Origin: Candidatus Taenariivivens baikalensis
GTDB taxonomy: Bacteria; Omnitrophota; Omnitrophia; Omnitrophales; Aquincolibacteriaceae
DNA length: 64,000 nt
Reading direction: 5' to 3'
Assembly (NCBI GenBank): GCA_009691445.1
Contig: SICL01000003.1
Location: forward strand, 25,834-89,833
Shown: positions 6,181 through 59,832 of the stretch, piece after piece
Layout: each line of letters opens with the position of its first letter
How positions within the stretch are numbered: the stretch's first letter is position 1
Notes under the pieces: generated by a model
The model's database searches: none
What the model was told of the DNA's origin: nothing
Seen by the model: only the letters and a program-made list of their open reading frames with translations
Made by a program: the position numbers and the translations under genes

Positions 6181-9100
6181 GTGACCTCCGTTCCGAAAAA
6201 AATGATGAAAAATCTTCCTAAAAAATCAGTCGCCCTGATCACGGGAATTGCCTTTGCCGTCACCAGCTTTGTCGCTCCCGCGTCTTATGCCGCACCCGTT
6301 CGCTTGACGGTACCGGGTACCGCCGCACCGAGTACTGCGCCGATGCCCAAAGAGTTTGGAGAAATTGTCTCGGAATATCACACCCAGGGAAATCAGACTT
6401 CTGTCTTTCTTATCCAGGATGCTCACGCAATACCAGAAGCACAAAAAAACATTCAAAAAATTATTCGTTTTCTGGCAGACAACTACGGCGTTCAAACCGT
6501 CGGCGTTGAAGGTGCTTCCAAAGAACTCGATACACAAATTTTTAAAAGTTTCCCGGATGCAAAGCGCTTGCAGGAAGTCTTTGATGATTATATGGAAAAA
6601 GGGGAACTCACGGGAGCGGCGGCGGCTGCGATTTTTAGGCAAGGAGCAGAGAGCAAGGAGCAAGGAGTCAAACCCCATGCCCCAAGCACCATGCTCCATG
6701 CTAAGTTTTATGGCTTAGAAGACCAACCCCTCTACGAAGAAGGCCTGAAGCTTTATCAGGAAGCGGCAGGGAAAGAGGCCGACCTCAAGACGAAGTTGGA
6801 AGTTAGAAGTAAGAAGTTAGAAGAAGAGAAGACGAAAGCGTATTCCAAAGCATTACTTGCGATTGATGAAGTCTTGGGTGCTTTCAATGAAAATCACGCA
6901 AATCTGACGGATGTCCTCTTTCTTCTCTCCAAAATCCGCAAACCGGAAAAGGGAAGTGAACTCCGGGCCATTCTGGATGAAATGAAACTTGAGAAGTCGG
7001 ACCGGACTTCGAGTGTGATCCAGGTGAGACGGCTTGCAAAAGAAGTGGAATGCGAAATGACGCAAAGTGCAAAGCGCATAGCGCATAGTGAAAAAAATTC
7101 AGAAAAACGCTTTGCCCTTAGCGCTATGCTCTATGCCGACTTCCACGCTAAACTCCAGCAATTCAACACTTCCCAGCTCACGCCTCAAGCATTTGCGTTT
7201 TATCTCAAAGAAGTGATCACGGAAAACAAGTTACCCCTGAAAGTATCCGATCATCTGCTCGGATTAGTCCGCCATCAAAAAACAGTTCAGGAAATTCAGG
7301 GAACAAAGCTGTTCAAAGATCTTGAAACCTACGCAGCGGCCATCAAAGAATCCCTTTTTGAAAATGCCGGACAGCGGGACCTCGATCGCAAGACGCATCA
7401 GCTTCAGCTGCTCACCAAACTCACAAAGCTTGAGCTCGCGAGGGAAGAGTGGGAAGAAGTAAAAAGGTTAGAAGTCGGAGGTTGGAAGTTGGAAGGAAAA
7501 TCGTCTTCACTTCAAACTCCTCATCTGTCTTTCTACCGCAACGCCGAAGCCCGGGAACGAGCCTTCCTGACGAAGTTAGACGTTAGAAGTTCGAAGTTAG
7601 AAGAGAAAAACCGCAGAGGCTCGTTACTTCCATCCTCCAACTTCAAACTTCAAACTTCTATCGTGGTCGCTGGCGGCTTCCACACCCAGGGCCTGGCCCA
7701 CAATCTCAAAGCCCGTGGAATTTCCTATCAAGTCATTATGCCGCGTATCCAGTCGCTTCCTGAACAGTCTTCTTACCGGGAGCAGATGAAAGGGAATGTT
7801 TCGTGGTCTTCTTATATGAAAGCAAAAGATGGACGGGTTAATTTGTATGAAGCTTTTACACGCGCTACGCGCGATAAACTCTTGAAGTTAGACGTTAGAA
7901 GTTTGAAGTTAGAAGAAAAAGAAGGAAATCAACCTGTCCAACTTCCGACCTCTAACTTGCAACTTCTTAAGCCTTGGCGAGACCAAATCCTAATCGACCT
8001 CGCTCAAACCGAACAGCTCGACAAGGCCGGAGAGTACACGCGGTTCATTGACGAAATCAGCAGAGAGCATAGTGCAGACCTGCCCGCCGAAGCGAAGCGG
8101 CAGGCGGGGAGCAGAGGGTCTGACTCTATGCCCTATGCCCTTAGCTCTATGCATCAGAAGTGGCAAGCCGCCGTTAAAAAATTTACCGATGGAATAATCC
8201 GCCTTGAATCCCAGGGCCGGTACACGCCGGATAATATCGTTCGCCTTCTTCAGCCTGCGACGATTCTTCCTGAAACGGGATTGGGACAATTTAATCCCGG
8301 ACAAACCTTTCCAGTATTTAGAGAAGGTCCGATGAGCGCGGAAGGGTTAACGGGTAAGCCGGTGCGCGGGTTCACGGGTACGAGCGCTCGCATACCCGCA
8401 TACACGCGTACCCGCACACGACAACCTCGCTCCGAAGCAAGAAATAATCTGCAATTAGGAGGGCCAAATGGAACGATTCGGTGGGTAGACATGAAATGGG
8501 GAAGCCAGCAGCTTCAACTTTCAGAAGCCATTCAATCTATGAATGATCCTGACATAAGCATAGCTCAAACCATAAAGGCCATAAAAGATTTTTATCTTGC
8601 GATTCAAGAAAGCGGAGAGGACGGGATGTATGATAGCATCGACAAACAGGATATCCTGACTGGGAACCTGCCTAACTTTTTACGCGCCTTGGGGATGCCC
8701 AAAAGCGACTCCGGAGAATCATTAACAGAAGCAGAAGCTCAATTTTCTTTTAATTATTTAAAAGAGCGATTCCATGATTTAGAATCTTTGAACGTTTCGT
8801 TTACAGGTTTGAATAATCCCTCTCTCAAGATCGAAATCTACTGGTGGATTTTTGTGCTTCTGTTAGTGGCTGATCACAACACGGCATCAGCGTCATCCGC
8901 CGACATTCAGGCTCTTTCAGAGACTGAAGAACTTTTGGCTCTGCTGATCTGTGCTATTTCCAGCGATCATGTGAGAGGACAAATTTCACAAAATCCCAAG
9001 GATTTGATTGAATCAAGATTGCTGGACTTGACCCGTACACAGCCTTTGCTTGGAAAATCCATTTCGAAAATCATGCGGCATTGGGATCCTTGGATTTCTG

Positions 9101-18853: not shown

Positions 18854-19810
18854 TTATGTGGTCGTTTCCTGAGTAGCGCTGGTCCCACTGTTTGAAGAAT
18901 CAGAATTCATAGTCCCGCCGCCTTGCTGCCCTTGCTGCTGATAATTTCCTTGCGGTGGCGGACGACGAGGACGCTTTTTCTTTTTATGAGGAGGCGGCAT
19001 CGTCCCGCCCTGGTCCTCACTTATCTCACTGCTGCTTTCAGAATCTGAACTTTCTGATTCTGAAATCGCTTCACTCGATTCCGTGGAGCTCCCAGACGAT
19101 GCGCTTTCCGTCATGCCTTCCTGCGACCCTTCCTGCATTCCTTCTTGAGAAGGAGGCATCATTCCCGATCCGTCGCCGCCTTGCATTCCTCCACCATTCA
19201 TTCCGCCACCGGGTCCCATTCCCATTTGCCCTTGGCCACCGCCATTTTGACCACCGTTCATTCCACCATTAGGCCCCCCCTGCATTCCGCCAGGACCACC
19301 GCCGTTCATACCTCCGCCTCCAGGACCACCACCGTTCATGCCTCCACCTGGGCCACCCATCCCGCGACCTCCGGGACCACCACCGTTCATACCTCCGCCA
19401 GGTCCACCCATTCCGCCACCGCCGCCAGGACCACCACCGTTCATACCTCCGCCTGGGCCGCCCATTCCGCCACCGCCACCAGGACCACCACCGTTCATGC
19501 CTCCGCCTGGGCCGCCCATTCCGCCACCGCCACCAGGACCACCACCGTTCATGCCGCCGCCTGGGCCGCCCATTCCGCCACCGCCTCCAGGACCACCGCC
19601 GTTCATGCCTCCGCCAGGTCCGCCCATCCCGCCACCGCCGCCGCCGCCTTGCATACCTGGACCACCGCCTCCGGGGCCGCCACCACCGCGCCGTTCACCG
19701 CCGCCGCCGCCGCCACCACCGGGCCCACCGCCGCCAGGTCGGGCTTCAAGCGAGGTGACAAAAACAAGATTGGAAATAATTGCGAGCGCAATCAGGGAAG
19801 GACGCTTCAA
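18854..19810 (-). CDS. secreted glycine-rich low-complexity protein with tandem 19-aa repeats (GGMGGPGGGMNGGGPGGGG) and acidic Ser/Glu tail
   Basis: signal peptide MKRPSLIALAIISNLVFVTSLEA; >=6 near-identical 57-nt tandem units; chosen over the plus-strand Pro-rich shadow ORFs because of the signal peptide and convergent terminator. Confidence 0.55.
   Translation of the reverse strand: MKRPSLIALAIISNLVFVTSLEARPGGGGPGGGGGGGGERRGGGGPGGGGPGMQGGGGGGGMGGPGGGMNGGGPGGGGGMGGPGGGMNGGGPGGGGGMGGPGGGMNGGGPGGGGGMGGPGGGMNGGGPGGGGGMGGPGGGMNGGGPGGRGMGGPGGGMNGGGPGGGGMNGGGPGGMQGGPNGGMNGGQNGGGQGQMGMGPGGGMNGGGMQGGDGSGMMPPSQEGMQEGSQEGMTESASSGSSTESSEAISESESSDSESSSEISEDQGGTMPPPHKKKKRPRRPPPQGNYQQQGQQGGGTMNSDSSNSGTSATQETTT
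19290..19640. repeat. 57-nt tandem repeat array (coding, inside the Gly-rich protein)
   Basis: ccgccaccgccaccaggaccaccaccgttcatgcctccgcctgggccgcccattccg repeated head-to-tail. Confidence 0.8.
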
Positions 19811-20032: not shown

Positions 20033-20143
20033 GTCATTGCGAGGCCCGCGCTTTGGCGGAGACCTGCCTCGCCGGCAGGCGGGCGCGGCAATCCCGGAGC
20101 ATAACCCGAGATTGCTTCGGTCACTTCGTTCCCTCGCAATAAC
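20033..20143. repeat. Family-R composite palindromic repeat, intergenic (upstream of hisI)
   Basis: gtcattgcgaggcccgcgctttggcgg...cggcaatcccgg...cccgagattgcttcggtcacttcgttccctcgcaataac; about 80% similar to the copy at 45050-45190. Confidence 0.75.
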
Positions 20144-20602: not shown

Positions 20603-22074
20603 TTCTGTCTCCCGATTTTTCCACTTTTTCCAGGCTCGCCCGAAAGGGGAATCTGATTGCGGTTCAATTTTCCATCCCCGCAGATCTTGAAACTCCAGTC
20701 TCCGCTTATTTAAAACTCGCTCACAAAGAAGAACATTCGTTTTTGCTTGAATCCGCAGAACAAGGTGAAAAGGTCGGGCGCTACTCATTCATCGGGTTAA
20801 AACCCAGTTCTGTCATTTCGAGCGAAGCGAAGCAATCTCAGGCAAGAAAGATTGCTTCGTCGCTTACAGTTCCTTGCAATGACACAATCCTGGACCTGCT
20901 TGAAAAAAATATTTCCAAATTCAAACTTGCTAATCCCGAAACCCTGCCTGATTTCTGCGGCGGTTACGTCGGCTTTCTGTCGTATGAAAATGTCCGGGAT
21001 TTTGAACAGGTCAAACTGCAGGAAAAACCGGGGCCGAAAATCCCTCAATCCGTTTTTTTTCTGACTCGTGAATTCCTGGTCTTTGATCATTTCCGTAAAA
21101 ATCTTTCCATTGTGATTCTCGCCGACACCGGTTCATCCGCATCTCTGAAAACGGTGTATGCCCAGACACAAGTGAAAATCGAAAGCTATCTCAAGAAACT
21201 CTCGGCACCTCTAAAACAAACCACCACCGCTCGAAGCTCCAAAAGTCGCTTTGTTTCGAATATGAAACCCGCGCAGTATTACGCCAAGGTCAACCGCATC
21301 AAGGAATACATCCGCGCAGGGGATTGCATCCAAACCGTACTTTCCCAGCGTTTTCAGATTCCGGCATCGGGTGATGATTTTCAAATTTACCGTGCCCTTC
21401 GTTCGATTAATCCGTCGCCTTATATGTTTTATTTTCGCTCCGGAGATCTGCGGCTCATCGGATCGTCTCCGGAACTTCTCGTCAAGAAAAAGGGGAGGAT
21501 GGCAGAAGTGCGTCCCATTGCCGGCACAAGACCCCGCGGTAAAAATCAGGAAGACGATCAGCATCAGGAAGAAAATCTCAAGCGCTCTAAGAAAGAAGCA
21601 GCGGAACATTTAATGCTCGTCGATCTTGGCCGCAATGATTTGGGCCGCGTTTGCGAGTTCAGTACCATCCAAGTGAAAAATTTTGCGCGCGTCGAGCGTT
21701 ACTCTCATGTCATGCATTTGGTCAGCGATGTCGAGGGACGATTGAAGTCGGGGAAGACCGCTTTTGATTTACTGAAAGCAACGTTCCCGGCAGGGACAGT
21801 GACCGGAGCTCCCAAAATTCGTGCGATGGAAATCATCAATGAACTGGAGCCCGAAAAACGCGGGCCTTATGCCGGATGCCTTGGCTATTTCAGTTTCAAT
21901 CAGAATATGGATATGTGCATCACAATCCGCACCTTGGTAAACGATGGGAAAAAGATTTATCTTCAGGCGGGAGCTGGAATCGTCAAAGACTCCAATCCTC
22001 GAAGAGAATATCAAGAGACCGTCAACAAGGCCAAAGCACTGCTGAAGGCCGTCGAAATTAGAAATGATTTTTAA
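20599..22074 (+). CDS. trpE: anthranilate synthase component I TrpE
   Basis: [21 protein letters not shown]-terminal and [44 protein letters not shown]-terminal chorismate-binding signature; 4-nt overlap with hisI. Confidence 0.9.
20812..20868. repeat. Family-R palindromic repeat inserted in-frame (57 nt, 19 codons) in trpE
   Basis: tgtcatttcgagcgaagcgaagcaatctcaggcaagaaagattgcttcgtcgcttacag; translated [22 protein letters not shown] immediately after the conserved [10 protein letters not shown] motif. Confidence 0.8.
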
Positions 22075-22092
22075 ATAGCACGCACAATGTTT

Positions 22093-22122
22093 GTCATTGC
22101 GAACAAAGCGAAACAATCTCGA
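22093..22122. repeat. Family-R half-repeat, intergenic trpE-trpG
   Basis: gtcattgcgaacaaagcgaaacaatctc. Confidence 0.6.
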
Positions 22123-22139
22123 TTTGGAATTTAAACTTT

Positions 22140-22736: not shown

Positions 22737-23887
22737 AAATCAGCGATACTTTTGCTTCATTACTTGCCGGGCAAGATCTTTCCCTCAAAGTTTCCTGCTG
22801 GATTTTTCGGAATCTTTTTTTATCGTCATTGCGAGCAACGCAAAACAATCTGACTCAGAGTGTCATCCTGAGTGCAACGAAGGATCTCAATTCTGAGATT
22901 CTTCACTCCGTTCAGAATGACAAAAAACGTCAGATTGCCACGGCCGTCAAAAAAAATGACGAGCTTGCAATGACAAACGCTGAAGCCAAAAATCTACTGA
23001 TCCTTCTGGCACGCAAGGGCGAGGCACCGGATGAAATTGCAGGATGTCTTGCCGCCCTCAAATCTCTGGAGAATCCGCGAAAGACCGGGATCCTTCATCT
23101 GATGGACACCTGCGGCACCGGGGGAGATGGCAGCCACTCGGCTAATATCTCCACACTCGCGGCATTGGTCATTGCCGGAGCCGGAGGAAAAATTGCCAAA
23201 CACGGAAACCGGAGCCTTTCCTCAAAGTGCGGAAGCTCGGATCTCCTTGAAGCTCTTGGGGTCAATCTGAATGCTGGAGAAAATAAAATGGTTCAGTCCA
23301 TCCGCGAATCCGGGATCGGCTATTTTCATGCGCCCTTTTTTCATCCCGTTTTTTCCAGAATGCAGCCGCTGAGAAAATCCCTGGGCATCCGAACGATATT
23401 TAACTTTCTAGGCCCCCTGGCTAATCCGCTTGAACTTTCGTATCAGCTGATTGGGGTTTCAAAAAAAGAAATGGTAAAAACTTTTGCGGAAGTGCTTCGA
23501 CAAAAAAAAATCCACCACGCTCTAGTCTGTCACAGTGAGAATGGCCTCGATGAGCTGACCACCACTGCCGCTGCCTTTTGTGCTGAGGTGCAAAAGGGAA
23601 GGATTCAATATTTTACTCTCGAGCCAGGAAAGTTGGGATTCAAAAAGGCATCCGTATCCGATCTTCGAGGTGGAAATATTTCACGAAACAAACAACTGGC
23701 CCTGAAACTTCTTTCCGGGAAAACCAAAGACGCTCTTCGTGATACCGTCATCCTCAACGCCGGCGCCGGTCTGTGGATCAGCGGAATTTCGAAAAATTTG
23801 AAAGACGGAATAACCTTGGCACGGAAATCACTGGATAATGGCAATGCGTATTCAGCGCTCCAAAACTTGGTAAAAATTAGTTGCTAA
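22733..23887 (+). CDS. trpD: anthranilate phosphoribosyltransferase TrpD (N-terminal helix region carries an in-frame repeat insert)
   Basis: LLAGQDLS...[20 protein letters not shown]...[17 protein letters not shown]...GNRS..S..GSSD signature; overlaps trpG stop by 4 nt. Confidence 0.85.
22824..22910. repeat. Family-R palindromic repeat inserted in-frame in the trpD 5' region
   Basis: cgtcattgcgagcaacgcaaaacaatctgactcagagtgtcatcctgagtgcaacgaaggatctcaattctgagattcttcac; encodes [29 protein letters not shown] between the two conserved N-terminal helices. Confidence 0.75.
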
Positions 23888-24033
23888 TAACCAAGATACA
23901 AGGTACAAGAAACAAATAATTTCCAATTTTAAAAATAAAATTTCAAATGACCGTTTTTAAAATTAAAAATTGGAATTTTAATCATTTTTTGTATCTTGTT
24001 TCTTGTATCTTGAAATTTAAATAGGGCAATTTT

Positions 24034-25593: not shown

Positions 25594-25610
25594 CTTACGC
25601 GTCATTGCGA

Positions 25611-25675
25611 GCAAAGCGAAGCAATCTCAGGCTTTAGGATTGCCGCGTCGCCCTCAAGGGCGCATCGTCGTGACA
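25611..25675. repeat. Family-R palindromic repeat, intergenic (trpF to histidine kinase)
   Basis: gtcattgcgagcaaagcgaagcaatctcaggctttaggattgccgcgtcgccctcaagggcgcatcgtcgtgac. Confidence 0.8.
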
Positions 25676-29518: not shown

Positions 29519-30736
29519 TTGCCTGTCATGGAATACGGCGTACTAAGTACTGTGGAAAATAAAAACGCCAGAACTCAACGTGGTACGCAGCGCGCAATAC
29601 TCAGTACTGGTTATAGTTCCTACGCCGAACTTCGTGACAAGGTTCGGAAAACCCTTCTCGAAGGCCAGCGTAAAATTGAACTCGCAAAGGTCCAGACTTA
29701 TTGGGATACCGGCAAACACATTAATGAGCACCTTCGGATTCATGAAGGGCGCACCGAGTACAAAAAGAAAACGCTGATCAGGCTGGGTAAAGATCTTGAT
29801 CTGGACGACAGTGTCCTTCGGCGGTGCGCAGAATTGAAGGAGGGATTCCCGGATTTACCAATTCGTGCCGGCTGGCACAAATCTGGTAATAATAGAATAA
29901 TCTCTATTAAAAAATATCCCTGGGCCTGCTTACACTGGAGTCATTTTCGGGCACTTCTTCCTCTTGAGGACCTGAAAACCCGCTACGAACTTGCCGATCA
30001 AGCCGCAGAAAAAGGCTGGATTGCCGAAGAGCTCGAAGCAAAGGTGAGGAAGATCAATGAAGATATCAGAGAAAAAAATGGCGGCGGGGGAAAACATCCC
30101 GTTCGTCCCTCGGAGCTGCTGACGCCCAAACTCGGTAAAACCGGCATTTATCAAATGATTCAGGACGGGGACTCGCTGACCGTGGATCTTGGGTTCACGT
30201 CTTACTGCAAACTTCCCAAGAATCAGGCAAGCAAATTCAAAGCCGGGGATTACTGCCTTTGGAAAGGCGACGCGCCGCCGAAAAAAATCCAGGGTGCGCC
30301 TTCCGATTTATTTACTTACGAAGCCGAAGTGCTGAAAGTCGTGGACGGGGATACGCTCTGGCTCAAGATCTGGCTCGCGGACGATCTGTGGCTGAAGGAA
30401 AAGGTACGGCTGCGCGGTATCAATTGTCCGGAGATGGATACGAGGGAAGGGAAGGATGCGAAAAAATTCGTGGAGTCCGTCATTGCGAGCAGTGCGAAGC
30501 AATCTCGCATCCTTATTGCTACGACGAAGCCCGACAAATACGATCGCTATCTAACGGATGTGTTTTTGCCAATCAGCATGGAGCAGAGAGCAAGGAGCAT
30601 AGAGAATAAATCTTTGAACTCCATGCCCTCTGCCCTAAGCTCTATGCTTTTTCTAAACAACGAACTCCTCAAGCACGGCTTGGCCGAGAAGAAAACCAAT
30701 TACTCGTTTAGCGATTGGGGAGATTTGGAACGCTGA
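29519..30736 (+). CDS. fusion protein: DUF1016 (YhcG-type) N-terminal domain + staphylococcal-nuclease-like (SNase/thermonuclease) C-terminal domain; carries two in-frame palindromic inserts
   Basis: N-term: LHWSHFRALLPLEDLKTRYELADQAAEKGWIAEELEAKV matches the DUF1016 N-domain consensus (LPWSHYR.LL...D...R.FY...A...GWS.R.LE.QI); C-term: VVDGDTLWL...VRLRGINCPE...GKDAKKFVE...YDRYLTDVF is the SNase fold pattern (GDT...RL.GIDaPE...G.eA......V......DrYGR.la.V). Confidence 0.7.
   Translation: MPVMEYGVLSTVENKNARTQRGTQRAILSTGYSSYAELRDKVRKTLLEGQRKIELAKVQTYWDTGKHINEHLRIHEGRTEYKKKTLIRLGKDLDLDDSVLRRCAELKEGFPDLPIRAGWHKSGNNRIISIKKYPWACLHWSHFRALLPLEDLKTRYELADQAAEKGWIAEELEAKVRKINEDIREKNGGGGKHPVRPSELLTPKLGKTGIYQMIQDGDSLTVDLGFTSYCKLPKNQASKFKAGDYCLWKGDAPPKKIQGAPSDLFTYEAEVLKVVDGDTLWLKIWLADDLWLKEKVRLRGINCPEMDTREGKDAKKFVESVIASSAKQSRILIATTKPDKYDRYLTDVFLPISMEQRARSIENKSLNSMPSALSSMLFLNNELLKHGLAEKKTNYSFSDWGDLER
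30479..30530. repeat. Family-R palindromic repeat in-frame inside the SNase domain
   Basis: gtcattgcgagcagtgcgaagcaatctcgcatccttattgctacgacgaag; encodes VIASSAKQSRILIATT. Confidence 0.75.
30586..30660. repeat. Family-B palindromic insert in-frame near the 3' end of the nuclease gene
   Basis: gagcagagagcaaggagcatagag ... ccatgccctctgccctaagctctatgc; same family as the three copies in the 4010-aa gene. Confidence 0.7.
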
Positions 30737-30737
30737 T

Positions 30738-31325
30738 TTATTCCAGATCCCGATGAAACCCGATTCGCCGTTTTGGTTTCTCCGGTTCCGGTGCCGGCTC
30801 AAGCAGCTGCTTCAAGGCATCAAAGACGACCTTAAACTGCAGGTCATACTTTTTCTCCATTGCCTCAATTTTCCGGCGCAGTTCTTTGTGCGCATCCAGC
30901 ATCTGTCTGATTTTCGTAAAGGTTCGCATGATTTGAATATTCACCTGAATCGCCCGTTTGCTTTTCAAAACACTTGAGAGCATGGAAACACCCTGTTCAG
31001 TAAAAGCGTAGGGAACTGCCCGTCTCAATCCTCCCCAACTTGAAGTCACAAATTGTGACTTCAAGTTGGTAAACTCTTCCGCGCTCAATTGAAACATGAA
31101 GTCCGAGGGAAACCTGTCCTGATTTCTTTTGACGGCTTGGATCAGTGCTTTTGGTTTCACCTGATAAAGATCAGCTAAATCGAGACTAAGCATGACCTTC
31201 TGATTCCGAAGAAAATAAATCTTTTGTCGAAGGGTTTCGTGGGAAATAGAAGCAGTATTTGAATCTCGAGTTTTCATTTTGGGCCTCCTGGAGTTGTTGG
31301 ATGTTTTACTTACTCCGAAAGCCAA
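30738..31325 (-). CDS. ORF6N-domain protein (KilA-N/antirepressor-like), copy 1
   Basis: KVMLSLDLADLYQV...QAVKRNQDRFPSDFMFQL...VTSSWGGLRRAVPYAFTEQGVSMLSSVLKSKRAIQVNIQIMR matches the ORF6N consensus. Confidence 0.8.
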   Translation of the reverse strand: MAFGVSKTSNNSRRPKMKTRDSNTASISHETLRQKIYFLRNQKVMLSLDLADLYQVKPKALIQAVKRNQDRFPSDFMFQLSAEEFTNLKSQFVTSSWGGLRRAVPYAFTEQGVSMLSSVLKSKRAIQVNIQIMRTFTKIRQMLDAHKELRRKIEAMEKKYDLQFKVVFDALKQLLEPAPEPEKPKRRIGFHRDLE

Positions 31326-31454
31326 AAAAAAAGAAGAACCCGCGGAGGAGTTTCACTTTCCGCAAGTTCTTCGCCCGTTGAAATGATACCAAAAAAGAGG
31401 ACTGAATCAACCGTTTTGTTCATTTCCCGGTACATTTTTTTGACGCTAGCAAAT

Positions 31455-31610
31455 GCTAGAAAAAGATCGTTGATCAGAAAAAAGGGTGAGCGGGTGAATG
31501 AGTATGCGAGTGCGCGCGTTGAAATTAACCCGTTAACCCTTGCGCTTTTTCATTTAATTTCACCTTCGGCGGGTTTACTCTGTCCCTCGGGCGGGGACTG
31601 TCCCCTTGAA
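31455..31610. repeat. Family-H hairpin repeat, copy 1 (long form)
   Basis: ...gatcgttgatcag...gcgcgcgttgaaattaacccgttaacccttgcgctttttcatttaatttcaccttcggcgggtttactctgtccctcgggcggggactgtcccctt; about 90% identical to the copy at 32460-32600; the core hairpin ctgtccc-tcgggc-ggggacag recurs at 40520-40595. Confidence 0.8.
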
Positions 31611-31945
31611 GTTCTCAAGCACGGCTTGGCCGAGAAGAAAACCAATTACTCGTTTAGCGATTGGGGAGATTTGGAACGCTGATTTATTCCAGATCCCGAT
31701 GAAACCCGATTCTCCGTTTTGGTTTCTCCGGTTGCGGTGCCGGCTCAAGCAGCTGCTTCAAGGCATCAAAGACGACCTTAAACTGCAGGTCATACTTTTT
31801 CTCCATTGCCTCAATTTTCTGGCGCAGATCTTTGTGCGCATCCAGCATCTGTCTGATTTTCGAAAAGGTCCTCATGATTTGTATATTGACTTGAATGGCG
31901 CGTTTGCTTTTCAAAACACTTGAAAGCATAGAGACGCCTTGTTCC
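31606..31945. repeat. segmental duplication: copy of 30672-31010 (3' tail of the nuclease gene plus 3' half of the ORF6N gene)
   Basis: about 340 bp at >90% identity read directly from both places (ctcaagcacggcttggccgagaagaaaaccaattactcgtttagcgattggggagatttggaacgctgatttattccagatcccgatgaaacccgattc...). Confidence 0.85.
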
Positions 31946-32235
31946 GTGAATATATAAGGCAAACTTCGCCGTCCTCCACGTCCCATGTTTGAAGTCACAT
32001 TTTGTGATATCAAAGCTCTAACCTCCTGCAAAGTAAGGCGTTGCATAAAATCATCAGGAAATCTTTCCCGGTTTCTTTTGACCGCTTGAATCAAGGCCCC
32101 GGTTGTGACTCCATAAAGTAAGGCCAAATCACTATCGAGCATGACCTTTCTGCCGCGAATGAAATAGATCTTTTGCTCGATCGCTTCTGAATCGTGGATA
32201 GCAGGTGTCTTGGTTGGTTTGATGGTTTTTGACAT
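31684..32235 (-). CDS. ORF6N-domain protein, copy 2 (paralog of 30738..31325; C-terminal 60 aa nearly identical, N-terminus diverged)
   Basis: KVMLDSDLALLYGV...QAVKRNRERFPDDFM...VTSNMGRGGRRSLPYIFTEQGVSMLSSVLKSKRAIQVNIQIMR. Confidence 0.8.
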   Translation of the reverse strand: MSKTIKPTKTPAIHDSEAIEQKIYFIRGRKVMLDSDLALLYGVTTGALIQAVKRNRERFPDDFMQRLTLQEVRALISQNVTSNMGRGGRRSLPYIFTEQGVSMLSSVLKSKRAIQVNIQIMRTFSKIRQMLDAHKDLRQKIEAMEKKYDLQFKVVFDALKQLLEPAPQPEKPKRRIGFHRDLE

Positions 32236-32459: not shown

Positions 32460-32600
32460 CAGCAAAAGATCGTTGATCAGGAAACCCGAGTTCACGAGTG
32501 CGCGGGTTGAAATTAACCCGTTAACCCTTGCGCTTTTTCATTTAATTTCCACCCTCAGCGGGTTTACTCTGTCCCTCGAGCGGGGACTGTCCCCTTGAAG
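32460..32600. repeat. Family-H hairpin repeat, copy 2 (long form), 3' of the subtilase giant gene
   Basis: agatcgttgatcaggaaacccgagttcacgagtgcgcgggttgaaattaacccgttaacccttgcgctttttcatttaatttccaccctcagcgggtttactctgtccctcgagcggggactgtcccctt. Confidence 0.8.
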
Positions 32601-32901
32601 TTTTCGATGACAATGATAGCCTCGACGATTTCAGAAGTGTGTTCCGAAGGAACCTCGCCGATGGCGTTAGAAATTTACCGCCAGACCAGGGCTTTTGGAA
32701 ATACCTTTGTTTTTTTAGTGGGCGGCATGGCCACGGATTACACGGTGATCGGGCTTCTTTGGAAAAACCTCAGAAAAAAAACAGGGCTTTGGATGCTTGT
32801 AATCAACATTCCCCAGATTATTTTCTTCGGCTGGATCTTTAATCGATTTTGATTTTTGGTAATCGGAAAGCGTTGCCCAAAATAGACTCTGAAGTTTCAC
32901 C

Positions 32902-40519: not shown

Positions 40520-40595
40520 ATGCTGCGTTTTTCATTTGATTTCCGTCTTTAGCAGGTTTAACCTGTCCCTCGAACGGGGACTGTCCCCTTACCTT
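40520..40595. repeat. Family-H hairpin repeat, copy 3 (short form), immediately upstream of the subtilase gene promoter region
   Basis: cgtttttcatttgatttccgtctttagcaggtttaacctgtccctcgaacggggactgtcccctt shares ttttcatttaatttc...ggtttac-ctgtccctcg-rcggggactgtcccctt with copies 1 and 2. Confidence 0.75.
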
Positions 40596-40739
40596 GGACC
40601 CTGCGAAACCGCGTTAACCATTGCCCAGGAGGGAATCCCCGCGGTCATTCCTATTGAAATGTGCTATTTGGGATGGCAGGAATCACTCCAGCAGTTGGCA
40701 AATCTTATTGAACCGGAAATTGCTGGGTAAAAAGGAGGT

Positions 40740-45049: not shown

Positions 45050-45190
45050 TCGTTGCGCGAGAGGAGTCCCCGCAGGGCGACGAAGCAATCTCGGGCTACA
45101 ACCCGAGATTGCTTCGATGCGCGCGCGCAATGTCCAACCCTCGTGTCATTGCGAGTCCCGCGCTTTGGCGGCGACGCGGCAATCTCAAGT
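45050..45190. repeat. Family-R composite palindromic repeat, intergenic downstream of dnaK
   Basis: gtcgttgcgcgag...cgacgaagcaatctcgggctacaacccgagattgcttcgatgcgcgcgcgcaatg...gtcattgcgagtcccgcgctttggcggcgacgcggcaatctc; shares cccgagattgcttcg and gtcattgcgag[gt]cccgcgctttggcgg with the copy at 20033-20143. Confidence 0.8.
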
Positions 45191-48127: not shown

Positions 48128-49083
48128 AGTCAATCGTGTCATTGCGAACAAATCTAAGCACTCTGACTCTTTTCTTAGTCTGTTCCCTCAGCGCTTTTGC
48201 CGCTGTGCCGAAATCATCTTCGTCGATTTCGGTTAAGGCAGAAGTCGACCACGCATTTATCACGATTGGAGATCCCGTCACCTACAGCGTCACCATCAAG
48301 CACGCGGCCGATGTGTTGGTGCTTTCCACACTGAATCCGCCGTCCGAAGAGACGTTCAAACTTAAAAACATGCAAGAGATTCACCGCAAGGAAGGCGCCT
48401 TGACCGTGGAAGGCCGCAAATACACGCTGACCTGCCTACGGCTTGGAGAATTCATCCTGGATCCTCAGGAAATTCAGTACCGGGCCGGTGGGGGAGAAGT
48501 CAAAACGATTCGAACTGAAAAAATTTATGTCACGGTAAAAAGCGTCGCCGAAGGAGAAGAGAAAAAGGACATTCGCGGAATTAAATCTGTGGTCCGCCTT
48601 GAGATTTCTCTCATTCCTTGGATCATTACCGGAATCGTCCTTTTAATTTGCGTCGTGGGATTCATGATTTATCAAAAAATTAAAAAGAGCAAGGGTCAGC
48701 CGCCCAAGCCAGAAACCAGGCTTTCCCTGGAAGAACAAGCCCTTCTCGATCTCGACCAGCTTTACGACTCTGATTTTCTCCGAAATGGGAAGATCAAGGA
48801 ATACCATTTACGACTCTCGGAAATTTTAAGGGTGTATTTTGAGCACCGCTATGACATTCTGGCGGCTGAATCCACCACCAGTGAAATCAGCCACTTGCTT
48901 CGGCAAAAAAATATGGACCTCAAGCTTCGCGAGAAAATTGAGACAGTGCTTGAGGCCGCTGATCTCGCTAAATTCGCCAAATGGAAACCCGATCCCCAGA
49001 TGATTAAAGAGAATTTTAAAAAAGCCAAGGAAATTGTTGAGGATTCTAAAGTCGTTCCCATTCAAGAGGGAGGAGCGGCATGA
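48124..49083 (+). CDS. hypothetical membrane protein of the Bat/MoxR aerotolerance-type operon (signal + TM; BatD-like?)
   Basis: signal LTLFLVCSLSAFAA; TM ISLIPWIITGIVLLICVVGFMIY; operon context only. Confidence 0.4.
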   Translation: MKSIVSLRTNLSTLTLFLVCSLSAFAAVPKSSSSISVKAEVDHAFITIGDPVTYSVTIKHAADVLVLSTLNPPSEETFKLKNMQEIHRKEGALTVEGRKYTLTCLRLGEFILDPQEIQYRAGGGEVKTIRTEKIYVTVKSVAEGEEKKDIRGIKSVVRLEISLIPWIITGIVLLICVVGFMIYQKIKKSKGQPPKPETRLSLEEQALLDLDQLYDSDFLRNGKIKEYHLRLSEILRVYFEHRYDILAAESTTSEISHLLRQKNMDLKLREKIETVLEAADLAKFAKWKPDPQMIKENFKKAKEIVEDSKVVPIQEGGAA

Positions 49084-50064: not shown

Positions 50065-52137
50065 ATGCAATTTTACGCGCCTGAATATTTCAATTTTTTC
50101 TGGTCGGTGTCGCTTCTTGCCGGTATTTTCTGGCTGACTCAGGCTGACTGGAAGCGGCGTATCGCCAAAATAGGAAACCGCGATTTGGTGCTCTCTAAAC
50201 TGATGCCCAACTTTGATCCCTCCACCAAACTTAAACAGTTTTTCTTTCTCATCCTGGCCATCATTTTCGCAACGATCGCTCTGGCAAGACCGCAATGGGG
50301 TGAGGAAAAGAAAAAAATTCAGCGCAAGGGGATTGATCTTCTCTTTATGCTCGATACCTCACTCAGCATGCTCGCGGAGGATATCAAACCAAGCCGTTTA
50401 GAAAAATCAAAGAGTGAAATCCGAAGTGTTCTGCGGCAGCTCAAGGGCGACCGCGTCGGCATGATTGCCTTTGCCGGAACAAGTTACCTCCAGTCGCCTC
50501 TCACCCTTGATTATTCTGCCTTCCAGCTCTTTGTTGATGCTATCCAGACCGGCTATATTCCTGACCCTGGAACTTCCCTGAGTCAGGCCCTCATGTTGGC
50601 AATTAAGTCGTTTCCTCCTGATAATCTTAAACATAAGGCCGTCATTCTTTTTTCGGATGGGGAAGACCTCGAAGGGGGCGTGGAAGAGGCCTTAAAGCAG
50701 GCCGCTGCTTCAGGACTGCGAATCTATGTCCTGGGAACAGGTTCTGAAAAAGGGGATCCGATTCCTCTCAAAAATGAAGCCAAACAAAAATCCGGATTCA
50801 AAAAAGACCGTAACGGCCAGATTGTGATTACTAAATTAAACCGGCCTTTACTCGAACAAATCGCTCAGAAAGCGGGCGGTCTTTATCTTCCCGCCACACC
50901 CGGTGAACAGGAAATTCCTGTCATTCTAAAACACATGGGAACCTTGGATAAAAAACAATTCAAAGAAAACGTGATCACCGATAAAGAAGATCATTTCCAG
51001 CTGTTCCTTATGTTGTCTTTCCTGATGCTTTGCTTGGAGATGTTCGTACGGCAAGCGAAAAAAAATAAGAAGAACAACGGACAATCCAATGGAGTGATCG
51101 TCGCAGGACTCGCCGCGCTTTGGATACTTCATTCGGGTTTTTTTGAAAATTCAAAGTCGTTGAATAATAAGGCGAATGAGGAGTACAAGCAAAAAAAATA
51201 TCAATCTGCCATTGAAAAGTACCGAAAAGCAGAGATCAAAACACCCGAAGATCCTACGATCCGGTACAACCTTGGATCCACCCTTTATCAGGTTCAAAAC
51301 TACAATCAAGCCGCCAAGGAATTGCAACATACACTTGAGCATAGCCTTCCAGATAATAAATCACTTTTAGCAAACGCCCAGTACAACTACGGCAATACCC
51401 AGTACCGTCTCGGGAACTTCGAAAAAGCGATTGATGCTTATCAGAAAACTCTGGATCTTGCCCCGGGAGATAAGGACGCAAAATATAATCTGGAGTTTCT
51501 GCAAATCAAAAAAAATGCCTTTGATAAAAAAGATCAGGAAAATAAGAAGCAGGATAAGCAACAGCAAAAAAATCAGCCCAAACCTAACGATCAAAAAGAT
51601 CAGCAGCAGAATCAACAGCAGCAGAAGCAAGACCAGCAACAGCAGAAAAATCAGGATCAAAGCAAAGACCAGGATAAGAAAGATCAGCAAGATCAAAAGG
51701 ATCAGCAGCAGCAGGACCAAAAAAAAGATCAACAAGACCAAAAAGATAAGCAAGACCAGGATCAAAAAAATCAGGATCAGAAGGAGCAAGGACAAAACAA
51801 GGATCAGGACGAGAAAAAGGATCAAGACCAACCTGATAAACAGAAAAACCCTGAGGAAGAAAATAAACGAGATCAGGAAAAAGAGGATGAAGAAAAGCAG
51901 CCCCAGGATCAAGACCCCCAGCAAAACGAGGAAAAGAAACCGGATCAGGAGGATCAAAAGGATCAGCAGAAGCCCCAGCCCGCTCAAGGTTCAAGCCAGC
52001 AGCAACTGCAGGGCCAAATGTCGCTTAATGACGCCTTGAGACTGCTCGAGGCCCTCAAAGACTCGGAGAAAGACCTTCAGGACCTTCGGCGGCCTCCAAT
52101 TCCTGAACGGCCGAGACAGGTCGAAAAAGATTGGTAA
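50065..52137 (+). CDS. VWA + TPR protein BatB-like with long C-terminal low-complexity K/D/Q/E-rich tail
   Basis: DLLFMLDTSLSM...FSDGEDL VWA motifs; TPR repeats (YNLGSTLYQVQNYNQAAKE, YNYGNTQYRLGNFEKAIDAYQKTL); about 170-aa KDQQ-type repeat tail. Confidence 0.8.
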   Translation: MQFYAPEYFNFFWSVSLLAGIFWLTQADWKRRIAKIGNRDLVLSKLMPNFDPSTKLKQFFFLILAIIFATIALARPQWGEEKKKIQRKGIDLLFMLDTSLSMLAEDIKPSRLEKSKSEIRSVLRQLKGDRVGMIAFAGTSYLQSPLTLDYSAFQLFVDAIQTGYIPDPGTSLSQALMLAIKSFPPDNLKHKAVILFSDGEDLEGGVEEALKQAAASGLRIYVLGTGSEKGDPIPLKNEAKQKSGFKKDRNGQIVITKLNRPLLEQIAQKAGGLYLPATPGEQEIPVILKHMGTLDKKQFKENVITDKEDHFQLFLMLSFLMLCLEMFVRQAKKNKKNNGQSNGVIVAGLAALWILHSGFFENSKSLNNKANEEYKQKKYQSAIEKYRKAEIKTPEDPTIRYNLGSTLYQVQNYNQAAKELQHTLEHSLPDNKSLLANAQYNYGNTQYRLGNFEKAIDAYQKTLDLAPGDKDAKYNLEFLQIKKNAFDKKDQENKKQDKQQQKNQPKPNDQKDQQQNQQQQKQDQQQQKNQDQSKDQDKKDQQDQKDQQQQDQKKDQQDQKDKQDQDQKNQDQKEQGQNKDQDEKKDQDQPDKQKNPEEENKRDQEKEDEEKQPQDQDPQQNEEKKPDQEDQKDQQKPQPAQGSSQQQLQGQMSLNDALRLLEALKDSEKDLQDLRRPPIPERPRQVEKDW
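51500..51990. repeat. coding low-complexity nucleotide repeat (aaagatcagcag / caggatcaaaaa iterations) inside the BatB-like gene
   Basis: direct reading of cagcagcag / gatcaaaag iterations; generates shadow ORFs on all other frames. Confidence 0.8.
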
Positions 52138-53305: not shown

Positions 53306-53883
53306 TATGAGAAATCTAAAATTTCAATGGGTTTTAAGCGGATTTCAATCTGGAGCAAGAGGGCCAGAGTTTTTAATTTTTTCTCAAGAACCGCCGCAAT
53401 GGCCTTGGACGGAAGAAAAGTTTCGAGCATTAACGAATAGAGATTTCCGGAAGAGGCTTCCAACACTTTACAATTCAGATCCGTAATGTTCAACCCTTGA
53501 CTCGCCAAAATCCGGCTGAGTTTATAAACAATCCCGGTTTGATCCGGCCCAATCACACTGATCAAATAATTGGCTTCCTGAGACGCTTTACATTGATGGT
53601 GCTTGGATGATGGCGAGGCCGGGAATTCCTTTAAAAAACAGCTCAGATTTTCACTTTTCTCAAAAAGTCCGGCAGCTTTTTTAAACGCATCGAGCTTGGC
53701 GGTCGAGAGAGTAAATACCATCATCATGGCGAATTTCCCATCCAAAAGAGTCATGCTGGCATCTTCCAGGTTTCCACCGTGGTTAAAAAGAATCCGGGTC
53801 ACGGAGGCAATAATCCCGGGACGGTCTTCTCCTGCCACATTTAAAAAAACCAGCCGTTGAGATGATGATGCGGGCGTCTTCAT
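53305..53883 (-). CDS. tandem ACT-domain protein (GcvR-like)
   Basis: two repeats of the ACT pattern (VFLNVAGEDRPGIIASVTRILFNHGGNL; ISVIGPDQTGIVYKLSRILASQGLNI). Confidence 0.65.
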   Translation of the reverse strand: MKTPASSSQRLVFLNVAGEDRPGIIASVTRILFNHGGNLEDASMTLLDGKFAMMMVFTLSTAKLDAFKKAAGLFEKSENLSCFLKEFPASPSSKHHQCKASQEANYLISVIGPDQTGIVYKLSRILASQGLNITDLNCKVLEASSGNLYSLMLETFLPSKAIAAVLEKKLKTLALLLQIEIRLKPIEILDFS

Positions 53884-54377
53884 CGCGAAAATCGTCCTTT
53901 TCCCTTTAGGGGATGTTCCTCATATGACCAAATCCCCTGGCCCGTTTGCTTTGCCTCGGCTTCCAGTGCGAGGAACTTTTCTTTAAGCTTAAAAATAGCC
54001 TTGGTATCTCCATCGACTTTGGCAGCTCCCGTCTTTAAAAGCACTTCGTTCACCATATAGCGCTTGGCCTCGGGCTGCTCGCCAAGTTTAAAGGGAAGGG
54101 GCAATTCGCTTGTATTCACGTAGAGATACCCGCACGGGTTCCCCTCTGTCTCCCCTTCAAAATCCACGTCCTTTTTTGATAAAAGGGCCGCAAGAAATGG
54201 GTGTGACTCCTCGCTCAATTTGAGTCCGGCAAGACAGATACTTTTCCCATTTTCCAGGATGATTGACCCTTGCGGCTCTATACTTTTGACGTGTTGGGAA
54301 AAACCGGGCGCAGGGATAGAACCCAGAAGGATAAAACTAAAAACCAATAATTTGGCAGGGAAATATCGCATCAACAT
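53880..54377 (-). CDS. hypothetical secreted protein
   Basis: signal peptide LLVFSFILLGSIPAPGFSQ; no family recognised. Confidence 0.35.
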   Translation of the reverse strand: MLMRYFPAKLLVFSFILLGSIPAPGFSQHVKSIEPQGSIILENGKSICLAGLKLSEESHPFLAALLSKKDVDFEGETEGNPCGYLYVNTSELPLPFKLGEQPEAKRYMVNEVLLKTGAAKVDGDTKAIFKLKEKFLALEAEAKQTGQGIWSYEEHPLKGKGRFSR

Positions 54378-58752: not shown

Positions 58753-59832
58753 TCAGGCGGATACCTCACTCGCGATGAGTTTCTTTTCTCCTTCTTCTCC
58801 GAGGGTGTTAAGTCTCGTTTGAAGTTTCACCATTCCCTTCAGGGACCTTTCATAGGCGCTTTGGGCATTCGTAAAGTGACCGCCTATTTTTTCAAAATCA
58901 TCCATCACTTTACGAAAATCATTTTCCAGTTGCTGAAGACTTTCAAGAATCACGGACGCTGAACGTTCAATTTTAAGCCCCCGGAGCCCTTTGGCAATGA
59001 CCCCAAGATACGCATAAAGACTATTGGGAGAAACCGGAATGACGTGTCTTTTCTGTGCGTATTCCGAGAGACTCTCTTTTTGAGAATCCCCTTTGATGAG
59101 AATCTCATAATACACATTCTCGGCAGGAATATACATCAACGCGAAATCATAGGTTCCTTCCTGGGGAAGAATGTATTTTGAAGCGATCTCATCCACACGC
59201 TTTCGGACATCGGACATGAATTGTTTGCGGGACTGTTGCTGCTTCTCTTCATCCTTTTCCTCAAGATACCGTCTAAAATTCTCCAAAGGGAATTTAGCAT
59301 CCACAGGAATCAGACCATCACCCATCCGAATCACAGCATCCACTTTGGATCCATCCCGGAAGGCGTACTGAAGCGTGAAATTTTCCTCCGGCAAAATCTG
59401 GGCGAGAAGTTGCTCAAGCAAAAACTCTCCTAACCCGCCTCTCAATTTGGGTGATCTCAAAATATCCTGCAAAGAAGCAATATCCTTGCCGATCCCCACC
59501 ATCGTTTGCGTCGCATGCTGAAGCTCACCGAGACGATTCTGAACTTTTTCCACGGAATCAGAATACCCCTTATGCGAATCAATCAAAAATCGGGTATTTT
59601 GAGAATATTGATCAGTAATCTGACGGTTGAGTCCCAAGACTTGATCCTGGAAAGAGTGTCGAAACTCTGCCATTTCTTTTTGCATCTTCGCCAAGGCTTC
59701 ATTCATAAAAACAGCCTCAGGATTAGGCCGCGCAGTCGATGCCGTACGTTGGATTTTCCAAAGCATGACACCGATTCCGGCCAAAATCAAGATCAACAAA
59801 AAGCCCAAAAAAAACATGGGGTCGATACTCAT
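58753..59832 (-). CDS. rmuC: DNA recombination protein RmuC
   Basis: N-terminal TM, coiled coil, then RmuC-domain region LRGGLGEFLLEQLLAQILPEENFTLQYAF...DAVIRMGDGLIPVDAKFPLENF. Confidence 0.8.
   Translation of the reverse strand: MSIDPMFFLGFLLILILAGIGVMLWKIQRTASTARPNPEAVFMNEALAKMQKEMAEFRHSFQDQVLGLNRQITDQYSQNTRFLIDSHKGYSDSVEKVQNRLGELQHATQTMVGIGKDIASLQDILRSPKLRGGLGEFLLEQLLAQILPEENFTLQYAFRDGSKVDAVIRMGDGLIPVDAKFPLENFRRYLEEKDEEKQQQSRKQFMSDVRKRVDEIASKYILPQEGTYDFALMYIPAENVYYEILIKGDSQKESLSEYAQKRHVIPVSPNSLYAYLGVIAKGLRGLKIERSASVILESLQQLENDFRKVMDDFEKIGGHFTNAQSAYERSLKGMVKLQTRLNTLGEEGEKKLIASEVSA

Follow-up and report, generated by a model that had tools for sequence, protein, structure and literature searches.

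A heptanucleotide-repeat hairpin lying in frame in a nuclease gene of Candidatus Omnitrophica, a probable product of within-genome copying that is tolerated in a protein surface loop

Bacterial heptanucleotide repeats first became known in 1990. Those of heterocystous cyanobacteria, the short tandemly repeated repetitive (STRR) sequences reportedly described by Mazel in 1990 and Vioque in 1997, include the motifs CCCCAGT, TTGGTCA, and CAACAGT (STRR1-3) and can lengthen helix P12 inside the RNase P RNA gene. A second precedent, the Rickettsia palindromic elements (RPEs), was reportedly presented by Ogata et al. in 2000 and 2002 as a selfish-looking family that lies in frame in unrelated genes and is translated; RPEs are tolerated at protein surfaces, measure 100-150 bp, have conserved family sequences with no 7-nt periodicity, and occur only in Rickettsia. 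Here, we describe an element with traits of both, 76 bases long (positions 30574-30649), inside the gene for a DUF1016_N + SNase nuclease, in a 64-kb stretch of DNA (the window) from a metagenome-assembled genome of Candidatus Omnitrophica. Our analysis suggests that this element is probably an in-frame heptanucleotide-repeat hairpin insertion that arose by within-genome copying and that the protein tolerates in one of its surface loops.

Heptanucleotide repeats are presented in the overviews within PMC4692102 and PMC4679880 (with Mrazek 2007 as cited there) as the most over-represented long simple repeats in many bacteria and as mostly intergenic, and polymerase slippage has been proposed as their origin (PMC4692102; PMC4679880). 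Repeats in coding sequence are normally multiples of three, according to the summary of Mrazek et al. in PMC4679880; heptamer arrays that remain in frame are odd because seven is not a multiple of the three-base codon. In Xanthomonas, heptamer arrays paired in inverted orientation give rise to stem-loops (PMC4692102). TAACTGA direct repeats, found in Beggiatoaceae, Cyanobacteria, and Bacteroidetes, are mostly intergenic, mostly just 5' of start codons, and have been proposed as regulator binding sites; a minority lies within open reading frames (ORFs), at the protein periphery, and possible mobility was raised by the author, with no evident transfer mechanism (MacGregor 2015, PMC4679880). Repetitive extragenic palindromic (REP) sequences and REPINs are short hairpin-forming repeats present in many copies and in inverted doublets, mobilized by RAYT transposases; REPs are extragenic, with conserved GTAG or CGTC heads and a linked RAYT gene (PMC3116915; PMC3733652).

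The host gene and the parts of its element, hereafter copy 4, are the following.
29519-30736, + strand: host gene, encoding a DUF1016_N + SNase nuclease of 405 aa
30574-30603, + strand: left arm of copy 4, purine-rich, units GCATGGA GCAGAGA GCAAGGA GCATAGA (cAGCATGGAGCAGAGAGCAAGGAGCATAGA), encoding SMEQRARSIE
30604-30619, + strand: loop of copy 4, 16 nt (GAATAAATCTTTGAAC)
30620-30649, + strand: right arm of copy 4, pyrimidine-rich, units CCATGCC CTCTGCC CTAAGCT CTATGCT, encoding MPSALSSML

Each arm of copy 4 resolves into four heptamers, four GCAnnGA units before the 16-nt loop and four CYnnGCY units after it, and the right-arm motif is the complement of the left-arm motif (also written GAGCAnn / nnTGCTC). 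Because the second heptamer run complements the first, the sequence can be folded into an imperfect hairpin; the RNA fold of 30576-30655 reached -31.6 kcal/mol (z = -4.4) in the sense orientation, with z = -5.4 for the antisense strand. Rfam 15 yielded no match at or above the gathering score anywhere in the 64-kb window. The initial annotation of this DNA had reported a palindromic element inside the nuclease gene, and it is indeed present, with an extent a little wider than claimed. Stop-codon avoidance was considered as the source of the stem mismatches in copy 4 and rejected, since hand working indicated that a perfect complement of the left arm would be equally stop-free. Translational bypassing or RNA-level excision of the insert was likewise set aside as unnecessary because every insert is in frame and stop-free.

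The nuclease is 100% identical to a protein (P0001) encoded on a contig of 116 kb. Comparison with homologues revealed that copy 4 adds a net ~19 aa to it by insertion, at the surface turn equivalent to ADGK. The nearest homologue (P0002, 52% identity) lacks the insert and reads DIFVQTKDGEIFLNN, against DVFLPISMEQRARSIENKSLNSMPSALSSMLFLNN in the window (alignment A1). The window nuclease has 28 residues between YDRYLTDVF and FLNN, whereas 73 of the 113 homologues in which the flanking motifs could be located, including P0002, have 8-9; the remaining 40 have 12-41 residues there, of highly varied sequence. On alignment with staphylococcal nuclease (5jav), the insertion point falls at the ADGK turn, which separates a strand from helix 2. 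In the AlphaFold model, the insert appears as a lower-confidence excursion from the core, with a mean pLDDT of 74 for residues 351-360 and 54 for residues 361-370, compared with ~90 in the flanking core. The same SNase loop holds a GC-rich palindrome with a 12-mer repeat in one homologue (L122) and, in two others (L206 and L207), pairs of heptamer arrays with other motifs (GTGACGA / CTTCAAC; GGACCAG / CTCTCAA). The window also encodes a second, small SNase-domain protein (53880-54377, - strand).

Exactly four copies of the copy-4 family were found in the 64 kb, one in the nuclease gene and three in the first 2 kb of a gene encoding a protein of 4010 aa (the giant gene). The other three copies, with a palindrome contained in one of them, are listed here; P0121 denotes a homologue of the giant protein (EXS63_03425) that is 54% identical and comes from another Omnitrophica genome.
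6637-6703, + strand: copy 1, a 17-aa insertion relative to homologues of 35-40% identity, present in P0121
7062-7136, + strand: copy 2, a GCAAAGT/GCATAGC variant, at a site where the P0121 sequence differs
8058-8152, + strand: copy 3, whose right arm is nearest to that of copy 4 (27/30) and in the same reading frame, shared with P0121
8079-8109, + strand: unrelated GC-rich palindrome nested in the copy 3 loop (CCTGCCCGCCGAAGCGAAGCGGCAGGCGGGG), also in the orthologous protein P0121

Searching the window with the right-arm pattern GCCCYNNGCNCYNNGCTCYATGC at ≤3 mismatches returned 11 matches, all of them in the four elements (~6640, 7070, 8130, and 30580), against 0.18 expected by shuffling (0 of 100 shuffles reached 11), and the left-arm pattern returned 16 matches against 1.41 expected. 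The right arm of copy 4 is identical to 8123-8152 at 27/30 positions, to 7107-7136 at 23/30, and to 6672-6701 at 22/30; its left arm matches 6637-6666 (copy 1) at 25/30, with a 20-nt identical run (GGAGCAGAGAGCAAGGAGCA). In a repeat search, 6672, 7107, and 8123 fell into one family with the right arm, and 6634 and 8048 into another with the left arm. On reading the sequence, whole heptamers are gained or lost between the left arms of copies 3 and 4. The arm anchors of copies 1 and 2 are in codon phase 3 and those of copies 3 and 4 in phase 2, and because the arms are read in two frames, the same DNA yields two different pairs of peptides, HAPSTMLHA and FALSAMLYA (copies 1 and 2) versus MPYALSSMH and MPSALSSML (copies 3 and 4). 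The initial annotation had translated copies 3 and 4 correctly, and its view that a DNA-level repeat, not a protein motif, is shared by the two genes is borne out by the two frames and by the insertion relative to homologues. The four copies measure 63, 75, 93, and 72 nt (first GCA through last TGC), all multiples of 3, which is the trace expected of selection for an open frame. The complementarity of each coding hairpin's own arms (0.71-0.76 in the three window copies tested) was about the cross-hairpin mean, and the window coding hairpins displayed no arm-to-arm covariation beyond the family consensus. Over 22 hairpins, own-arm pairing exceeded foreign-arm pairing weakly (0.787 versus 0.760; permutation p = 0.018), and several intergenic hairpins elsewhere do show arm covariation.

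A further heptamer family, GAAGTTA, occurs four times in the giant gene.
6791-6828, + strand: single GAAGTTA-family array without an inverted partner
7464-7525, + strand: GAAGTTA-family array with a weak partner
7572-7660, + strand: GAAGTTA-family hairpin, an insertion of ~24 aa, absent from P0121
7884-7968, + strand: GAAGTTA-family hairpin, shared with P0121; other homologues have hairpins of other heptamer motifs here

In this family, stop-codon avoidance does account for the TAACTTC arms, which carry mismatches because a pure repeat would close all three frames (hand working from the sequence). Copy 1, copy 3 with its nested palindrome, and the 7884 hairpin are insertions relative to the homologues of 35-40% identity (alignment A2), and since all three are common to P0121, they predate the split of the two lineages. 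Comparison with P0121 revealed three conserved element sites, one empty site, and three sites that are almost wholly different (3/13, 5/21, and 4/22 residues identical). Judging from its peptide, P0121 may carry a different heptamer motif at the copy 2 site, and the peptide AVSSMQ suggests a GCAGTTA-type array at two of the diverged sites. The N-terminal domain of the giant protein, in which these sites lie, matched no Pfam family.

A scan of metagenomes yielded 80 homologues of this domain (window 6181-8300; L123-L202; 28-40% identity). The 136 kb of domain coding sequence analyzed, from 81 homologues, contained 89 period-7 arrays and no more than one (0-1) array of any other period between 4 and 12, and 84 of the 89 fell in low-occupancy alignment columns at about ten recurrent sites, including all those occupied in the window. 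The motifs of the arrays differ between lineages and tend to agree within one gene: array pairs separated by more than 150 nt within a gene shared a motif (≤1 mismatch) in 23.7% of cases, compared with 3.6% at different sites and 7.1% at the same site between genes, so that sharing within a gene was 6.6 times the between-gene figure. For pairs within 150 nt, 50% shared a motif, mostly in inverted orientation. The turnover of the arrays is fast. In one gene (L128, 3196-3315), a (GGATGGC)n array that is 21 nt longer stands in place of the (CTCAGnn)n array found at the same site in relatives of 84-89% protein identity (L132, L133, L146, and L148).

Period 7 was also the only period enriched in the window as a whole, where autocorrelation detected 9 period-7 regions against 0-3 for other periods. 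Two further heptamer families are also present in the window.
23886-24014: intergenic hairpin of a third heptamer family, CAAGATA / TATCTTG, fold z = -7.2
626: TTGAATT heptamer array

All four copy-family elements and the four second-family arrays lie inside ORFs, so that these arrays are not predominantly intergenic in the window. Beyond it, a scan of one genome per species for GCCCTNNGCNCTNNGCTCTATGC recovered at least 119 loci, where ~17 would be expected at uniform base composition; among the matches listed, these came from Omnitrophota, Bacteroidota, Desulfobacterota, Nitrospirota, Verrucomicrobiota, Acidobacteriota, Calditrichia, and others. The external contexts are long degenerate arrays, often adjoining arrays of other heptamers, and at least ~20 have an inverted partner arm. 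The 806 kb around the loci listed contained at least 331 period-7 arrays of at least 145 distinct canonical motifs, compared with ≤41 arrays for any other period. Among the matches listed, ~109 of 122 external arrays of the same motif are not within long ORFs. A scan of viral contigs for the motif gave only 2 matches and therefore no sign of a phage vector. One Omnitrophota locus (L037 5140-5260, Bin_214) has an ORF open for at least 8 kb with three close heptamer arrays (GCATAGn, GGAAAAA, and GGACnAC), two of them ~30 nt apart and none with an inverted partner.

These external arrays also qualify the relation between the nuclease gene and the giant gene, whose elements the initial annotation had called clearly the same. 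At least 9 arrays from unrelated phyla match the right arm of copy 4 at ≥27/30, and at least 14 match its left arm at 25/30, equaling the best arm matches within the window, and the window arms pair no better with each other than with the arms of unrelated hairpins. What the two genes have in common is therefore a shared heptamer family and not a discrete unit specific to them; their likeness is not proof of direct copying from one to the other.

Taken together, we regard copy 4 as belonging to a genome-wide population of 7-nt-repeat arrays that can be compared with STRRs, and as existing through a process at the DNA level and not for what it encodes. Under the explanation that we consider probable, arrays of one motif would first be copied between places in the genome, by template switching or by ectopic gene conversion primed by short repeats, and single units would be gained or lost by slippage. 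The copies that survive inside genes would then be those that happen to be in frame, free of stops, and placed in a surface loop, and the insert would be translated as a tolerated loop extension, effectively neutral for the protein. Several observations weigh against this explanation. No copying event was seen directly, and no donor/target pair with defined junctions was recovered; the family copy count, moreover, covers the 64-kb window alone. The element segments retained in P0121 are identical at 63 of 81 aa, versus 274 of 445 in the rest of the domain, which is unexpected for neutral filler. Array density is 0.61/kb in the domain against 0.01/kb in the next 1.3 kb of the same ORFs (~60-fold) and 0.08/kb upstream of the domain (~8-fold). 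The ~60-fold difference is ill explained by loop tolerance and hints at targeting or function, for which this enrichment in a single domain leaves room. Finally, 30620-30647 is identical over 28 nt to an array in the isolate Emticicia sp. BO119 (L027), and the left arm of copy 2 (7062-7082) is identical over 21 nt to an arm from Nitrospirota (L012). Such identical arms of 21-28 nt in other phyla could reflect horizontal spread by some agent or chance within a constrained repeat family.

A first alternative, which we judge unlikely, is a non-autonomous mobile element of the miniature inverted-repeat transposable element (MITE) or REPIN type, its hairpin being moved or copied by a transposase encoded elsewhere in the genome. 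The hairpin build, the several genome copies, the insertion relative to homologues, the genome specificity of the motif families, and the different palindrome nested in the copy 3 loop are all consistent with such an element, and copies 2, 3, and 4 have an AAT in common a few bases before the first unit. The whole element is an imperfect inverted repeat. However, its arms vary in unit number and sequence, many arrays are single and without an inverted partner, and the window arms complement each other no better than foreign arms. No consistent termini, GTAG/CGTC heads, terminal inverted repeats, or target-site duplication were recognized in the four copies, nor was a flanking direct repeat common to them, and the homologues are too divergent to supply the DNA of an empty site. 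The ORFs scanned across the 64-kb window contained no transposase domain, that of RAYT (Y1 transposase) included. Of the mobile or copy-paste element first proposed for this DNA, copying within the genome is supported by the excess of motif sharing within genes over that between them.

Equally doubtful in our view is that the hairpin or array is kept by selection, whether for ribosome slowing, mRNA stability, binding of a regulator, or diversification of the exposed loops of secreted proteins. The fold z-scores of -4.4 to -5.4, the recurrence of arrays at the same loop sites in dozens of lineages with ~60-fold enrichment in one domain, the better conservation of retained elements than of their flanks in P0121, and the quick replacement of motifs at a fixed site argue for a function of this kind, as would the N-terminus of the giant protein, which resembles a signal peptide in its sequence. 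Against it, inserts of ≥8 aa occur in only 0-22% of the homologues of the giant-gene domain at any site, the nearest nuclease homologue has none, the window copies lack arm-to-arm covariation and an Rfam match, and most external copies are intergenic, with no fixed position.

More speculatively, and at similarly low odds, a dedicated machinery transferable between lineages, for example a template-directed or hairpin-targeting enzyme, may write and exchange heptamer arrays at specific sites, and Omnitrophota may harness this process, or at least focus it, for the remodeling of loops exposed on secreted giant proteins and on the DUF1016_N-SNase nuclease. If true, this would account for the restriction to a period of 7 nt, the ~60-fold higher density in one domain, the complete exchange of one motif for another at the same site, and the identical arrays in distant phyla.

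A functional peptide motif (MPxALSSM-like) common to both proteins is highly improbable. The peptides of copies 3 and 4 are alike, but this reading is contradicted by the frame analysis because copies 1 and 2 are read in the other frame as unlike peptides; the motif is, in addition, missing from most homologues, and in other genomes this DNA lies mostly outside coding sequence. Chance low-complexity resemblance or an assembly artifact, which the low-complexity sequence and the origin of most related loci in metagenome-assembled genomes might suggest, can be dismissed almost entirely in view of the 11 pattern matches against 0.18 expected, the frame kept through ORFs of 405 and 4010 aa, the elements common to the independently assembled genome of P0121, and the arrays present in the Emticicia isolate, in a record titled as a complete genome (L050), and on contigs of up to 1.1 Mb.

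Next to copy 4 lies a tandem duplication of ~950-990 bp that starts at 30662. The initial annotation had reported a 340-bp duplication from 30672, which corresponds to the well-conserved first 352 nt (93% identity) of this larger event, and had put the element exactly at its upstream breakpoint; in this single case, the two are close and not coincident, the breakpoint falling 13 nt past the end of the right arm.
30662-31607: duplication unit 1, comprising the terminal 75 nt of the nuclease gene, an ORF6N gene (- strand), and a leader-like segment
31608 to 32595-32605: duplication unit 2, comprising a relic of the nuclease 3' end (31608-31682), an ORF6N gene (- strand), and a leader-like segment
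31593-31605: perfect palindrome GGGGACTGTCCCC, ending 3 nt before the duplication junction

Identity between the units drops from 93% in the first 352 nt to ~70% in the central part and returns to 92-93% in the final 118 nt. The junction shows an imperfect 9-nt microhomology (GAACTCCTC, GAAGTTCTC, and GAAGTTTTC; the junction copy is GAAGTTCTC), and both breakpoints lie 3-21 nt from hairpin-forming sequence, a configuration that would fit hairpin-associated template switching in this one case. The tandem ORF6N paralogues (30738-31325 and 31684-32235, both on the - strand) have a mosaic identity pattern; their ends are 93% identical and their central part ~70%, suggestive of gene conversion or of allelic recombination. 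On the contig of P0002, too, the SNase gene has a convergent ORF6N neighbor. A segment of ~117 nt that contains the palindrome GGGGACTGTCCCC and a mini-ORF (MKKRKG*) occurs three times (31500-31616, 32488-32605, and 40529-40599); read on the minus strand, its copies precede the two ORF6N genes and, immediately before the ATG, a 2539-aa gene, and it may represent a shared promoter or leader module, one that has no Rfam match.

The window contains other repeats as well. A second short-palindrome family (GTCATTGCGAGC...GCAATCTC) is represented by at least 9 copies, whose mutual complementarity reaches 93%; several of them lie between genes of a tryptophan-biosynthesis cluster.
35-76, 20096-20129, 20809-20846, 22090-22127, 22822-22859, 25598-25635, 30476-30513 (+ strand), 45081-45126, and 48135-48172: members of the second palindrome family

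The member at 30476-30513 is inside the nuclease ORF, where it encodes VIASSAKQS and replaces homologous residues with no extension. A 54-nt tandem repeat at 19263-19691 forms a Pro/Gly-rich tract in an ORF without a Pfam match, and a long Gln/Lys/Asp-rich low-complexity tract occupies 51523-51958 in a VWA-TPR protein. An RmuC-family protein is encoded at 58753-59832 (- strand); this family has been linked to limiting rearrangements at short inverted repeats.

The heptamer repeats described here occur where they should be least tolerable, inside reading frames and with a unit length that is not a triplet. Because they are restricted to recurrent loops and turn over between close relatives, a protein alignment allows dates to be put on array gains, losses, and replacements, and selection on frame, stops, and loop position then becomes separable from the mutational process. 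Peptides derived from such repeats inflate or distort loops in the annotated proteins of uncultured phyla and can be mistaken for motifs.

Among the systems to which the window can be compared, some are general processes. Template switching is known to occur at quasipalindromes. Microhomology-mediated tandem duplication, as outlined in bioRxiv 10.64898/2026.02.28.708716, resembles the duplication beside copy 4 in its 9-nt imperfect junction microhomology and hairpin-near breakpoints; both, however, are general mutational mechanisms that define no element family, and the link to a hairpin is a single case. Phase-variable simple sequence repeats of contingency loci, perfect tracts in which a change of unit number switches the reading frame, differ from the window arrays, whose units are degenerate, whose frame is intact, and whose inserts are conserved in P0121. 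REPs and REPINs are similar as short multi-copy hairpins with inverted doublets, but the four copies have no consistent end tetranucleotide, and only copy 2 adjoins a GACG. The TAACTGA repeats provide a parallel for one heptamer motif across distant phyla; they have another motif and are direct repeats, and neither hairpin pairs nor internal loop insertions are described for them in that account.

The closest likenesses remain those of the two systems introduced at the outset. With STRRs, the window arrays have in common tandem degenerate 7-nt units, many motifs per genome, and, sometimes, inverted pairs. They differ in that their motifs are not STRR1-3, their phylum is Omnitrophota, and they lie in frame inside protein-coding sequence; we know of no description of STRRs that are concentrated in particular protein loops. 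With RPEs, the window inserts share their position in frame in unrelated coding genes, their absence from homologues, and their location at the protein surface, whereas their length (63-93 nt), heptamer build, rapid motif turnover, and phylum set them apart, a distinction drawn from these traits and not from sequence alignment to RPEs. Copy 4 acts like an RPE and is built like an STRR.

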